Positions 25,420-38,911 of a stretch of 64,000 bases of DNA are shown piece after piece. Within the stretch, counting starts at the first letter, position 1; each line of letters begins with the position of its first letter. The DNA is from Gammaproteobacteria bacterium (GTDB lineage Bacteria > Pseudomonadota > Gammaproteobacteria > Eutrophobiales > Eutrophobiaceae). The notes under the pieces are model-generated. The model was given only the letters and a program-made list of their open reading frames with translations. It was not told the DNA's origin and searched no databases. The translations under genes and the position numbers were made by a program. The stretch spans positions 94,377 through 158,376 of the forward strand of contig JAURNY010000018.1 of assembly GCA_030829955.1 (NCBI GenBank). Direction: 5' to 3'.

Positions 25420-26340
25420 TCATGAGCATGTATCAGTGATTTCACATTGATAAGCAGTTGATTGCATACGCATTATGCTTTGTGAATAAAGCACTATGCT
25501 GAAGCGTCCATTATCTGTAGGATCGGAAATACAGCTTTGGGCGAATGTGCCGGCAGCAGGCGGTCCAAAGAAACCTTCAGGGGTGTTGTCTGTATCCGGC
25601 CAATAATGTCCATAATCAATTTCTGATTGTGGTGCTGAACCCTTGCCATAGCGCTGCCAAGCCCAAATCATACGATTCACAAAAGGAACAATTAACTGAA
25701 AACAATAACCAACATGGACTTTTAACAAATTTGCATCTTGTATGGTCTGTGCACTTGCACCAACCAGATTGGAATCACGGTACATTAAATTATCATTCGG
25801 AATGCCTAATACCGCTCCACGTTCATCATCATCAATCATGACACCATAATCACTGAATGAATCTGCATTGGGATTAACGACAGTGATATTGACATAACCA
25901 TCATCAATTTGCTGCTGCACGATTTGACGGGCACAAAGCACGTCATCAGACTCAAACGTATTGATATTTTTATCGAGTACCCCGCGTGTATTGGTATCAA
26001 CAATTTGTGTCGCACCGACTCGTGCTTGTCTGCCAGCATCTGTATTTAGGAATGTACTGGAGCAGTCTCCTGAATTATCCATATTAAGATAACTACTGGT
26101 ATAAAGTGGTGACATATTACTGGCAAACGCGAGCTGCATATTGGATAAACTGGCATGACTGATGCTACCGGCACGAACAGTTTGGAAGGTTGCATAATTG
26201 AGCGTGACTTTGGCCTGATATATCAGGGCAAACTGTAATATACCCATTACCAGCATGAGCATAACAGGAAACACTATCAGGAACTCCACCATAGCTTGTC
26301 CATGTTGTGAATTTATATAGTGTCTATAGATAATCATCAT
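25420..26340 (-). CDS. TadE/TadF-like pseudopilin (Tad pilus minor component)
   Basis: 306 aa. N-terminal TadE-like segment QHGQAMVEFLIVFPVMLMLVMGILQFAL (G/xxxxEF pseudopilin motif plus a hydrophobic helix). Confidence 0.7.
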   Translation of the reverse strand: MMIIYRHYINSQHGQAMVEFLIVFPVMLMLVMGILQFALIYQAKVTLNYATFQTVRAGSISHASLSNMQLAFASNMSPLYTSSYLNMDNSGDCSSTFLNTDAGRQARVGATQIVDTNTRGVLDKNINTFESDDVLCARQIVQQQIDDGYVNITVVNPNADSFSDYGVMIDDDERGAVLGIPNDNLMYRDSNLVGASAQTIQDANLLKVHVGYCFQLIVPFVNRMIWAWQRYGKGSAPQSEIDYGHYWPDTDNTPEGFFGPPAAGTFAQSCISDPTDNGRFSIVLYSQSIMRMQSTAYQCEITDTCS

Positions 26341-26351
26341 GCTGCAGCTGA

Positions 26352-26825
26352 TTATTTTTCCTGAATAATCTTTTTGATTTCTTCCAGCATATCGTAAGCC
26401 TTACCATATAGAGGATCTTGTTTATCAGCATAGACTAACATTTCACTTAAACTAAATGCTGTTTGTTTTAATTGTACGACACTCAGGTTATACCAGGCTT
26501 TTGAGTGTTTAGGATCACGAATGACCGCTTCTCGATAAAGATTCATGGAGGCATAAGGTCTTTCTGTTCTGACATAGATATTAGCCATACGAAACCAGTA
26601 CTCAGCTTCCTGTGGTAATTCTTTTATCAGAATTTCGTAATATTTCTCACCATTCTGCAGGTCATCATTTTCATATGCCTGATTCGCTTTTCGTTTAATT
26701 TCCTGCAAATCAACTTGTGGCTCTGCCTCTACTTCAGTTTTATTCTGTAATGTATTACATCCACCTAGTAACAAGGCGATAGTTATTAACAGAATAGGTT
26801 TAACAAAGAGCGTTAGATAATTCAT
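26352..26825 (-). CDS. tadD: TPR-repeat lipoprotein, TadD-like
   Basis: 157 aa. Lipoprotein signal (LLLGGC lipobox) and TPR repeats, positioned after tadC. Confidence 0.6.
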   Translation of the reverse strand: MNYLTLFVKPILLITIALLLGGCNTLQNKTEVEAEPQVDLQEIKRKANQAYENDDLQNGEKYYEILIKELPQEAEYWFRMANIYVRTERPYASMNLYREAVIRDPKHSKAWYNLSVVQLKQTAFSLSEMLVYADKQDPLYGKAYDMLEEIKKIIQEK

Positions 26826-27172
26826 ATGTCCTTCCAGATAAGACGTTGTCCAATTTCTAAATTCAAGGTTTGCAATTTATTCGCATTGAGTTCAATTACT
26901 CCCTGTGCTGAATGGCAGATGGAAAAGCAGCATGGTCTTAACGTCTTTACCATTTTTACAATACGACATTCCTTATCCACATAGATTAAATCAATGCTGT
27001 AACGCATACCCAATGTATGCACAGATGAGCATGGCGTAATATATAAAGCTTCATTTGCCTGTAATTTTTTTCTAAGCAATAAACCGCAGAGTCGTTCAAG
27101 AAAGTGCGTTGTTTTTTTTACATCGGGTAAAACACATTGCTCAGGTTCAATCATTAACCTGCCATGCTTCAT
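26822..27172 (-). CDS. DUF192 (COG1430)-like protein
   Basis: 116 aa. Size and pattern consistent with DUF192. Translationally coupled to tadC upstream and tadD downstream (4-nt overlaps). Confidence 0.5.
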   Translation of the reverse strand: MKHGRLMIEPEQCVLPDVKKTTHFLERLCGLLLRKKLQANEALYITPCSSVHTLGMRYSIDLIYVDKECRIVKMVKTLRPCCFSICHSAQGVIELNANKLQTLNLEIGQRLIWKDI

Positions 27173-36754: not shown

Positions 36755-38601
36755 AAGCTTGGTATCAAATTCAACAGATCGCCAAAAATTAAATTAAATG
36801 ATTGACCGGTCTGGATGAAATCCTCTTTTTGCTGCATCAATAGCGCCAAGATTTGTTCGGCGTAAGTTGTTTCAAGCAGTCTTGCTTGCCAGTAAGGATT
36901 AAACGCACTGCCATATTCAGCTTGACCGTCACCGCGATGAAAGTGTGAAGCTAAATTATCTGTTGGGCGTGAAAAGTACAACTCGGACTTGGCGAGAACG
37001 GCGAGTTCATTATCAGCAAGCGCTTCATTGAGTCGAAATCGACCTGTTGGCTCATTATATGTAGTCGTACTATCAAAATCACTTTCATCCTGAACCAGGC
37101 CAATTAATAAATTTGGTGCGCCGACACCAAGAAAAGATTCATTACCCGTCGTATCAACATAGTATGGCAAACCCGCATAGGTTTTATTAATTCGAGAGCC
37201 GAGCAATCTTTCATAGGTTTGAGCAGAGGCGGCAATACCAATTGGTACAGGAACACTTGGACCAGGTGAATTCCATGCCAGAATATTTTTGGGTGATTCA
37301 CCATAATGATCATTCTCGATAACACCGCTAAGCGAAGCGAGCAGCATATTTTTAGTGGCCAGATTATTTGGTGTATTTTTTCCGACTTCAGCAAACCCTG
37401 AAGCAAATGGCGCGGTATTTGGAAAGGGGATGCCGTCTAGAATAGTAATGGTTTTACCTAGAATTCTGAGTTCTAAACTCGCTTCTGCATCTTTTATCGA
37501 TACACCACCACCCACTCCAACTTTGCCGCAAATGCCTAACGCACAAGCTCTTGCATATGCTTCAAAATCAAGGATAAAGTCAATGGTTAGACCAGTCGTA
37601 TCTGCACTAGACCAGTTATAGTTTCCAGCAGTGACATTGCCACTGGAAGGTAAGACTAGACGCAATTCACTGGCACCTGCACGTTTTAAATAAAAATCCA
37701 GATAGACATATAAATCGAAACCGAATTTGACCGAGGCAATGCCAATATCAATTCCAAAACTTGGGTGTATATCAATCTCTATAGGAAAACCTGGCGGACG
37801 TAACTCCCAGCCGCGAGCCATAGTAAATGGGTCACGGGAATCACGTATTAGTGCTGCCAGCCTGGCATAACCATCATCTGCAGCGTCATACTCATCGACT
37901 GATGTTTTTGAATTAGAACGATAAGCGGTAGCGAATTGATCCCCCGGTAGATTTGGTAGAACGCCATAAGTTGAAATATGCGCGATAAGTGAGACGATAC
38001 CAAAATCACTTATTTTTGTTCCCGGTGGACCGTTGTCATTAATAACTTCATCCAATACCCCTACAGCAAATATTATACTTACGGTGTGATAGCCATACTG
38101 AGCATAACCATAGATTTTATTAATGTTATGAATCACCGTGGTGCCGACATTGGCAATGGTTTTCATTACACTCACGGCGGTTGTTCCAGCTCCGCGCCAG
38201 GCTGATGTAATTGGAGTGATTACCGCATTTGAAGCACCTAAAGTGAGTGGAGAAAGAATCAACTGGTTATAGCTATCTAGGTAATCGGCAAATGATTTGA
38301 AATGATATGCCCACGATGCAAGACCAACGAGTTGTCCAATAGCAACTTCATTAGCGACAATTGCTCGATTCATGTAAGAAGCAAAATTTAGATCACGGGC
38401 TTCTACGGTCGACATACTATAAACCGCAGCATCAGCTGCGTTTTGCAGTTGCATCTTATTACTGGTGAGTTTGCCTGATTTAAAAAGTGCGAAGCCGGAA
38501 ACGGCGAGTATAGGAATAAATAAAAGAACGAAAACAGCGGCTTGTCCACGCTGTAATTTAAAAAAACGTTGAATATTTTTTGGCAAAGCTTTAATTTTCA
38601 A
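36751..38601 (-). CDS. tadG: TadG-like Flp pilus assembly protein
   Basis: 616 aa. N-terminal TadG-like segment (LQRGQAAVFVLLFIPILAVSG ... LQNAADAAVYS). Positioned between the flp pilin and the other pseudopilins. Confidence 0.6.
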   Translation of the reverse strand: MKIKALPKNIQRFFKLQRGQAAVFVLLFIPILAVSGFALFKSGKLTSNKMQLQNAADAAVYSMSTVEARDLNFASYMNRAIVANEVAIGQLVGLASWAYHFKSFADYLDSYNQLILSPLTLGASNAVITPITSAWRGAGTTAVSVMKTIANVGTTVIHNINKIYGYAQYGYHTVSIIFAVGVLDEVINDNGPPGTKISDFGIVSLIAHISTYGVLPNLPGDQFATAYRSNSKTSVDEYDAADDGYARLAALIRDSRDPFTMARGWELRPPGFPIEIDIHPSFGIDIGIASVKFGFDLYVYLDFYLKRAGASELRLVLPSSGNVTAGNYNWSSADTTGLTIDFILDFEAYARACALGICGKVGVGGGVSIKDAEASLELRILGKTITILDGIPFPNTAPFASGFAEVGKNTPNNLATKNMLLASLSGVIENDHYGESPKNILAWNSPGPSVPVPIGIAASAQTYERLLGSRINKTYAGLPYYVDTTGNESFLGVGAPNLLIGLVQDESDFDSTTTYNEPTGRFRLNEALADNELAVLAKSELYFSRPTDNLASHFHRGDGQAEYGSAFNPYWQARLLETTYAEQILALLMQQKEDFIQTGQSFNLIFGDLLNLIPSL

Positions 38602-38674
38602 CCGGTTATAATCGGTTGTTACATTTTAAAGAACCAAACTGCCACTTTAATGGCAGTTTGGTTAAGTTGTTTAT

Positions 38675-38911
38675 CTAGTCATTACTTTCTTGATAGTCGC
38701 CCAAGCCACGTTGGGTTTCTGCCGCACCACCTTCGACATATACATCAGAGGTAGCAGTACCACCAGACAGTTCAGCTGTCATATTGCCCATTTGGTCAGT
38801 TATAGTATCGCCAAAAACACTGTAAATGCCGATTGCTGCAATCGCGATCAAAGCGACGATGATGATGTATTCCGTCATGCCTTGACCCAGTTGTTTCATG
38901 AAACGCTTCAT
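38675..38911 (-). CDS. flp: Flp/Fap-family prepilin
   Basis: 78 aa. MKRFMKQLGQG|MTEYIIIVALIAIAAIGIY matches the Flp G/xxxxEY processing motif plus the hydrophobic helix. First gene of the locus. Confidence 0.8.
   Translation of the reverse strand: MKRFMKQLGQGMTEYIIIVALIAIAAIGIYSVFGDTITDQMGNMTAELSGGTATSDVYVEGGAAETQRGLGDYQESND

Follow-up and report, generated by a model that had tools for sequence, protein, structure and literature searches.

A Tad pilus locus with an FHA domain on its motor ATPase and no linked TadZ: a conserved, apparently undescribed subtype

TadZ is presented in the literature as the hub that recruits the components of Tad pilus machines, and the ParA/MinD-like CpaE, its counterpart in Caulobacter, whose six dimers encircle the motor ATPase CpaF, has been called a 'ubiquitous' Tad component (PMC13170226). 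What is to be made, then, of a Tad locus that encodes no TadZ and carries an FHA domain on its motor? Such a locus occupies positions 25420-38911, on the minus strand, of the stretch of DNA analysed here (the 'window', 64,000 nt of contig JAURNY010000018.1 from a gammaproteobacterial genome assembly). An earlier note on this DNA had described a minus-strand Tad cluster with an Flp prepilin, an RcpA secretin, an FHA-fused CpaF, TadB and TadC, and our domain searches agree with that description. We consider it probable that this is a complete, functional Tad (type IVc, Flp) pilus operon, belonging to a distinct conserved subtype in which the FHA domain acts as a stand-in for TadZ.

TadZ and the FHA domain of the motor

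Pfam was run on every open reading frame (ORF) of the window of at least 110 amino acids (aa). No match to CbiA, AAA_31 or ParA was obtained and none to Peptidase_A24, the family of the prepilin peptidase TadV/CpaA. Custom hidden Markov models (HMMs) of TadZ and TadV, applied to the stop-to-stop frames of both strands, gave nothing better than E=9 in any of the six frames of the window. These models were seeded from annotated canonical loci on Burkholderia pyrrocinia and Rhizobium plasmids, plus relatives, and the seeds were checked by Pfam (AAA_31/CbiA and a receiver domain for TadZ, Peptidase_A24 for TadV). As a positive control, the TadZ model picks out an unrelated plasmid ParA at 4e-20 and is thus sensitive. 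In addition, since cpaF starts 18 nt past the stop codon of the secretin gene, there is no space for a tadZ between them. Both absences reported in the earlier note, that of TadZ/CpaE and that of an A24 peptidase, are therefore upheld for the window, and HMM searches of the locus ORFs revealed neither kind of domain, including in the 239-aa and 352-aa proteins. A cryptic peptidase or ParA among the locus proteins was also considered and was ruled out by Pfam, local HMMs and regular expressions for the GGGDxK and KGGxGKT motifs.

When a single genome was scanned for each species, at least 80 CpaF loci were among the matches listed; the closest marine relatives are not among these and were documented through protein matches and identical contigs. 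The comparison covers 84 loci including that of the window, a similarity-biased sample from the matches listed. An FHA domain is present at the N-terminus of CpaF in 41 of them, and a TadZ-like gene lies within 10 kb in none of the 41. The other 43 have a CpaF without FHA, and 42 of these have a TadZ-like gene within 10 kb; the single locus without one starts at cpaF owing to a contig end. In 24 loci TadZ has a gene of its own immediately upstream of cpaF, and in the remaining 18 it is fused to the N-terminus of CpaF, that is, at the same site where the FHA domain is found in the first group.

The mutual exclusion in the 84 loci and the shared N-terminal site in 18 lend strong comparative support to the suggestion of the earlier note that FHA stands in for TadZ. 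The substitution is well supported by these sequence comparisons, and the FHA domain may replace TadZ in function as well; that it localises the machine, as the note proposed, is a conjecture. On a rough, unsupported neighbour-joining tree of the ATPase core, FHA-type ATPases from Proteobacteria, Myxococcota and the Planctomycetes-Verrucomicrobia-Chlamydiae (PVC) group are interleaved with TadZ-fusion clades, and the proteobacterial FHA group forms one clade beside a Myxococcota (Kil-like) group.

The TadZ-CpaF fusions (about 715-840 aa, one of them verified by Pfam) come from Bdellovibrionota, Omnitrophota, Planctomycetes, Elusimicrobia and WOR-3 (loci L031, L037, L041, L043, L045-L048, L053, L056, L061, L063, L064, L069, L076, L079, L081 and L085). 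Their presence in 18 loci means that the 'atypical TadZA' of Bdellovibrio is widespread. In Bdellovibrio bacteriovorus, TadZA connects the motor with RomR, a polarity hub; like the window motor it carries an N-terminal module on a flexible linker, but there the module is TadZ and here it is FHA (bioRxiv 10.64898/2026.07.08.737194).

The FHA fusion named in the earlier note was recovered by Pfam, above the family cutoff, on the T2SSE protein of the locus (Table 1). The protein consists of the FHA domain, an acidic linker (residues ~100-147) and a CpaF core (residues 138-559) that matches the solved C. crescentus CpaF at 9e-125. The linker has a predicted local distance difference test score (pLDDT) below 50 in a weak model: the alignment available for the full-length AlphaFold2 (AF2) prediction was shallow and its mean pLDDT is 50. 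This N-terminal FHA, linker and core arrangement is that of the class III CpaF proteins, for example E3HIW0 of Achromobacter xylosoxidans, which have the same order of FHA, disordered linker, three-helix bundle, NTD and ATPase (PMC12019362). Class III proteins are described as 'mostly betaproteobacteria', which fits the many Burkholderiales among the syntenic loci found here; that study classifies the ATPase alone, assumes phosphothreonine binding and makes no mention of CpaE or TadZ (PMC12019362). FHA-CpaF itself is thus already published. The present analysis adds its link to the loss of TadZ, of which no report was found, the locus type as a whole and the degenerate binding site.

The phosphothreonine site of the window FHA domain is changed: Lys28 replaces the Arg of the GR motif, Ala42 replaces the Ser of SxxH, and the SxNG loop has no Asn. 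The same holds for most of the proteobacterial clade. The Arg is kept in 6 of 25 proteobacterial sequences (17 have Lys) against 14 of 16 from Myxococcota and PVC; the Ser in 3 of 25 (Ala or Gly in 21) against 16 of 16; and the Asn in 4 of 25 against 15 of 16. Conversely, Trp39 is found in 24 of the 25 and in none of the 16. The large-scale loss of the binding residues, together with the absence of a Hanks-type kinase from the window, favours constitutive docking over a phospho-switch. The FHA domain of the proteobacterial clade is most likely, by these residue patterns, a constitutive protein-docking module and not a switch controlled by a kinase.

The window FHA domain also matches the Pfam family Yop-YscD_cpl weakly (E 0.0017). 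The ring proteins of type III secretion (YscD/PrgH family) use phospho-independent FHA folds as structural docking rings. This is an analogy only, as the machine is a different one and the FHA fold is on a membrane ring protein, not on an ATPase. A HMMER search of the FHA region against 1.84 billion representatives returned 43 matches at 1e-10, mostly N-terminal fragments, a count that says little about the size of the family, as the clustering of full-length proteins is governed by the ATPase portion.

The locus and its relatives

The locus consists of 14 minus-strand ORFs, confirmed at their stated coordinates, all intact and co-oriented and with overlapping or short junctions (Table 1). They encode, in the order of transcription, Flp, the TadG-like protein, the 352-aa, 239-aa and 121-aa proteins, CpaB, the 84-aa protein, the secretin, FHA-CpaF, TadB, TadC, the DUF192 protein, the tetratricopeptide repeat (TPR) lipoprotein and the TadE-like protein. 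With mutS and htpG on its two flanks the locus is complete, no part having been cut away, and at least 24 metagenome contigs carry it in identical form. In the calls of other gene finders, Flp begins at Met5 and the secretin has 489 aa.

The earlier note had regarded the locus as divergent and atypical. This is overstated: about 25 species among the matches listed have the same gene order, with the secretin directly before FHA-CpaF and with the subtype-specific 352-aa and 239-aa proteins, and a Moraxella bovis plasmid has that order too. The shared synteny is Flp-TadG-pp352-sec239-(pp121)-CpaB-secretin-FHA-CpaF-TadB-TadC-DUF192-(TPR)-TadE. The hosts include Chromatiales, Oleiphilus, a Pseudomonas metagenome-assembled genome, two Acidithiobacillus species, Thauera, Hydrogenophaga, Polaromonas, Variovorax, Piscinibacter, Quisquiliibacterium, Pusillimonas, Oxalicibacterium and other Burkholderiales. 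On the Moraxella bovis plasmid the order is Flp, a TadG-like gene, three small genes, CpaB, secretin, FHA-ATPase, TadB, TadC, DUF192 and TadE, and no peptidase is found across its 130 kb. More than 100 protein clusters from marine metagenomes are 76-91% identical to the window ATPase and have both FHA and T2SSE domains; uncultured marine Gammaproteobacteria are rich in such relatives. The subtype is widespread and apparently undescribed: no description of it, or of Tad systems that lack TadZ or have FHA in place of TadZ, was found in the open-access literature.

Table 1. Features of the Tad locus and the genes that bound it (a caret marks the leader cleavage site)
Feature	Position	Strand	Remarks
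htpG	39090-40973		bounds the locus on one side
Flp-type major prepilin, 78 aa (74 aa from Met5)	38675..38911	-	leader MKRFMKQLG^QGMTEY, then hydrophobic helix
13-bp perfect hairpin and weak T-run	38632..38663	-	directly after the flp stop codon
TadG-like large minor pilin, 616 aa	36751..38601	-	PF13400 Tad 5e-9; leader RG^QAAVFV
Pilin-like protein, 352 aa	35696..36754	-	leader LG^QSMTEF; no Pfam family
Periplasmic two-domain protein, 239 aa	34977..35696	-	signal peptide ...VYA^GRP; subtype-specific accessory component
Small pilin-like protein, 121 aa	34599..34964	-	leader QG^QGMVEF; no Pfam match
CpaB/RcpC alignment protein, 704 aa	32461..34575	-	TIGR03177, RcpC, SAF, DUF3659 repeats
Secreted protein, 84 aa	32206..32460	-	signal peptide; restricted to close relatives
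RcpA/CpaC-type secretin, 499 aa	30662..32161	-	Secretin 3e-41; T2SS-T3SS_pil_N 1e-12
FHA-CpaF motor ATPase, 564 aa	28949..30643	-	FHA 32.2 bits; T2SSE 2e-63
Degenerate FHA domain, residues ~1-100 (Pfam match 24-87)	30344-30643	-	cutoff 20.7 bits
TadB platform protein, 293 aa	28062..28943	-	one T2SSF domain, 1e-14
TadC platform protein, 293 aa	27169..28050	-	one T2SSF domain, 8e-20
DUF192 protein, 116 aa	26822..27172	-	PF02643 6e-15; no signal peptide
TPR lipoprotein, 157 aa	26352..26825	-	lipobox LLGGC; TPR families; candidate TadD-like pilotin
TadE-like minor pilin, 306 aa	25420..26340	-	PF07811 TadE 3e-12; leader HG^QAMVEF
mutS	22822-25380		bounds the locus on the other side

The assignment of the major pilin rests on its motif, position and homologues, as its Pfam Flp_Fap score is below threshold (21.1 bits, cutoff 32.2); the Flp-position ORFs of about 25 related loci match it at 1e-11 to 1e-19 (phmmer). 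The earlier note had given its cleavage site as G/MTEY. A site is present, but the register is LG^QGMTEY, with Glu5 and Tyr6. A Shine-Dalgarno sequence, GAGGAG, lies 8 nt upstream of flp, and no sigma-54 promoter was evident there on inspection by eye. The hairpin that follows the gene is likely to be an attenuator or an mRNA stabiliser between the pilin and machinery genes. In a close relative (L010, 7960-10937), the Tad cluster is directly followed by genes for a histidine kinase of the PilS type and for a response regulator that depends on sigma-54; neither is present in the window.

Minor pilins of the TadE/TadF/TadG type are represented by PF13400 and PF07811 proteins and by two more proteins with matching leaders, so that four such genes, the number of pseudopilin-like genes given in the earlier note, are supported by Pfam domains, pilin-like leaders or both (TadG-like, 352 aa, 121 aa and TadE-like). 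The TadG-like gene is kept at the same position across related loci. Homologues of the 352-aa protein occupy the same position in most proteobacterial FHA-type loci, and the 121-aa protein has weak homologues in four loci (L009, L012, L013 and L018). The motif G^Q(G/S/A)M(T/V)E(Y/F) is common to four of the five pilin-like leaders and points to a single processing enzyme.

That enzyme is not encoded in any of the 25 proteobacterial FHA-type loci, none of which includes an A24 gene. The earlier note had taken the absence of tadV as atypical, a view overturned by the TadZ-type loci: tadV is missing within 10 kb in 26 of 43. An unlinked peptidase is thus common. In Bdellovibrio, where the tad loci are without tadV, PilD processes Flp1 (bioRxiv 10.64898/2026.07.08.737194), and this precedent makes PilD the candidate. 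The pilins of the present locus are most likely processed by an unlinked A24 peptidase, probably PilD. Nor do the additional genes stand in place of TadZ and TadV, as had been proposed, since loci of the TadZ type likewise have DUF192 and minor pilins of the TadE/G type.

The 704-aa CpaB scores 128 bits with TIGR03177 (cutoff 71) and 2e-21 with RcpC. Some eight diverged repeats of about 40 aa (eight Pfam DUF3659 stretches) are inserted at residues ~320-660, ahead of the C-terminal strands, which together with the TIGR03177 score agrees with the repeat-bearing CpaB homologue of the earlier note. Tandem Repeats Finder detected no tandem repeat in cpaB at the DNA level. Across related loci CpaB ranges from about 300 to about 700 aa.

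The two secreted proteins of the earlier note, of 84 and 239 aa, do carry signal peptides. The gene for the smaller is also called on metagenome contigs, and its C-terminal motif MIVGGQSENGVAK resembles the C-terminus of CpaB, LIIGGSSEDGVAK. The 239-aa protein was modelled with a pLDDT of 87.8 as two Mog1/PsbP-like domains. The best fold matches are periplasmic PA1624 and DcrB, but the fold is generic and no function follows from it; a profile of the family gave no match among PDB sequences. The model suggests a structural or chaperone-like periplasmic part but points to no specific function.

The DUF192 gene lies 3' of tadC in FHA-type and TadZ-type loci alike, in several phyla, and the cytoplasmic protein, by its sequence context, looks like a general, uncharacterised Tad accessory and not a substitute for TadZ. 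DUF192 follows tadC in L049, L052, L055, L058, L059, L062, L065, L066, L071, L075 and L082, and the linkage spans Proteobacteria, Firmicutes, Chloroflexota and Lentisphaerota. In the open-access literature searched, a single paper names it together with Tad. The TadD-like TPR lipoprotein of the earlier note is present, but it is the 157-aa gene, the last gene (306 aa) being TadE-like by PF07811. It has weak NCBIfam matches to TPR lipoproteins of the PilW, Tgl and BamD types and probably acts as a pilotin. NCBIfam was run on ten locus proteins (all except the secretin, TadB, TadC and DUF192); matches were limited to CpaB and to generic ATPase and TPR families, and the unknown proteins received no name.

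Other genes of the window were noted as well. A GAF and HD_5 (HD-GYP-like) protein, a possible cyclic-di-GMP phosphodiesterase, is encoded at 41053-42702, beyond htpG and on the strand opposite to flp, from which it lies two genes upstream. The segment at 43889-46937 encodes a SoxY-SoxZ fusion, a c-type cytochrome and a molybdopterin enzyme that resembles sulfite dehydrogenase, and the host looks like a sulfur-oxidising marine gammaproteobacterium with a GC content of about 39%. A probable phosphonate biosynthesis cluster (46981-51582) includes a phosphoenolpyruvate mutase-nucleotidyltransferase fusion, a thiamine pyrophosphate-dependent decarboxylase, a class V aminotransferase and a second nucleotidyltransferase. 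A hopanoid-type cluster (57584-63927) includes a squalene-hopene cyclase, which the end of the window truncates, together with a phosphorylase-like protein (PNP_UDP_1), a transporter of the MMPL family and an NAD-dependent epimerase. Finally, an RsbU/RsbW/RsbV-like partner-switching module (GAF-SpoIIE phosphatase, HATPase_c_2 anti-sigma kinase and STAS protein) is located at 18370-20420.

Known systems and alternative readings

Compared with the canonical Tad systems (Aggregatibacter tad, Caulobacter cpa and Pseudomonas aeruginosa flp-rcp-tad), the locus is alike in its Flp G/XXXXEY motif, TadE/F/G-type minor pilins, CpaB/RcpC paired with an RcpA secretin, CpaF/TadA-family motor, split TadB/TadC platform and TadD-like TPR lipoprotein. 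It differs in having neither TadZ/CpaE nor a linked TadV/CpaA, in the FHA domain on the motor, in the position of minor pilin genes upstream of cpaB, in the extra 239-aa and 84-aa proteins and in the approximately eight repeats of CpaB. It is not a type II secretion system: the NCBIfam GspE score is 46 bits against a cutoff of 630, no GspC, GspL or GspM families are found in the locus, and the platform is split. The Kil system of Myxococcus xanthus, a Tad-like apparatus for killing prey (PMC8460266), resembles the locus in that its CpaF-like ATPase, KilF, is fused to FHA and no TadZ is reported; on the rough tree the ATPases are sister groups. Kil, however, is encoded in two clusters, includes a peptidase of its own (KilA) and numerous further FHA proteins, and lacks TadG and TadD (PMC8460266); its FHA has the canonical residues. 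The window locus, in contrast, forms a single operon in which the one FHA domain is degenerate, with no further FHA protein and no peptidase. By Pfam analysis of the locus proteins, the FHA-fused ATPase is the only one of these Kil features that the two share.

Certain points weigh against the reading of the locus as a functional Tad operon with FHA as TadZ stand-in. Production of a pilus is a prediction from the gene content. The search for TadZ and the peptidase covered 64 kb, and either could sit far from the locus. The bias of the 84-locus sample towards similar sequences has been mentioned, and the exclusivity of FHA and TadZ may reflect only a few evolutionary events, as the proteobacterial clade looks monophyletic on the unsupported tree. 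The domain arrangement of FHA-CpaF is drawn from Pfam and PDB matches, the AF2 model being poor, and any binding partner of the FHA domain is hypothetical.

One alternative, given the scope of the search, is an ordinary split Tad locus, with tadZ and tadV elsewhere in the genome and the FHA domain an unrelated regulatory add-on. Tad genes are indeed dispersed in Bdellovibrio and in Myxococcus Kil, and tadV, as noted, is often unlinked in TadZ-type loci. tadZ itself behaves differently, being adjacent to or fused with cpaF in all but one of the non-FHA loci, and no ParA/MinD-like gene lies within 10 kb of any of the 41 FHA loci; general scattering of genes would not yield such an all-or-none pattern, and we regard a split locus as unlikely. 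It is far more improbable still that the locus is a decaying, non-working remnant. Two components regarded as core, TadZ and TadV, are missing, but the 14 ORFs are intact and tightly packed, the identical locus recurs on the metagenome contigs mentioned above, and different classes of Proteobacteria, their CpaF proteins 50-91% identical, have the same architecture. The FHA domain could also be a phosphothreonine reader through which a Ser/Thr kinase and phosphatase pair switches the motor, as with Fha1 in type VI secretion. FHA domains classically bind phosphothreonine, the class III study describes the domain in this way (PMC12019362), and the canonical residues are present in the FHA domains from Myxococcota and PVC. 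With these residues replaced in the window protein and its clade, no Hanks-type kinase in the window, and the sole PP2C-like gene (18370-19644) belonging to the RsbU/W/V-type module 6 kb away, a switch of this kind seems distinctly improbable.

A different function has also to be weighed, namely a Tad-derived machine for secretion or contact-dependent killing, comparable to Kil or to a type II secretion system, in which a short, non-adhesive pilus pushes Sec-exported cargo through the secretin. The FHA-fused ATPase of Kil (PMC8460266) and the sister position of the Myxococcota FHA-ATPases in the tree speak for it, as do the two secreted proteins of unassigned role in the locus. In the Moraxella plasmid, Piscinibacter and Thauera, moreover, large RHS toxins with Sec signal peptides are encoded directly downstream on the same strand, with no PAAR or VgrG nearby. 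This linkage is limited to one subclade, however, and the window locus, directly flanked by mutS and htpG, has no toxin or immunity genes. A system that forms a pilus needs just such a set of a Flp major pilin, TadG and three further minor pilins, and the 239-aa protein, encoded among the pilin genes, is conserved like a structural part. We judge a secretion machine rather unlikely here.

The RHS genes are at L007 16868-21430, 684-6053(-) and 24220-25662, L017 14678-20257 and L020 5807-11362; the Thauera protein has DUF6531, RHS and a Tle1-like lipase end. A further, unlikely reading is that FHA-type, TadZ-less Tad machines form a family of Kil-related exporters whose short Flp fibre pushes Sec cargo, in some cases RHS proteins, the window copy being unlinked to its cargo. 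If this were true, the RHS linkage would represent a new, type VI-independent route for the delivery of Rhs toxins.

Proposed mechanism and significance

If the locus is a Tad pilus operon in which FHA stands in for TadZ, it would operate as follows. The Flp pilin and the four minor pilin-like proteins, their leaders cut by an A24 peptidase encoded elsewhere (most likely PilD, from either a type IVa pilus or a type II secretion system), would be polymerised on the TadB/TadC platform. The filament would leave by way of the ring of CpaB and then the secretin of the RcpA type, with the TPR lipoprotein as pilotin. The motor would be the CpaF ATPase, each protomer bearing an N-terminal FHA domain on its acidic flexible linker, with TadZ absent. 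Having lost the Arg, Ser and Asn residues for phosphothreonine and gained a conserved Trp, the FHA domain would dock constitutively and take over the hub or anchoring role of TadZ.

TadZ/CpaE is held to be universal and Tad-defining, part of the motor ring and of the positioning apparatus, yet in a large natural clade without it the motor always bears an FHA domain. Such loci are abundant in Burkholderiales and in Gammaproteobacteria from the sea, and annotation models built to require tadZ could rank them too low or overlook them. The presence of FHA at the site where TadZ is fused in other lineages offers a direct handle on the purpose of the cytoplasmic ring.

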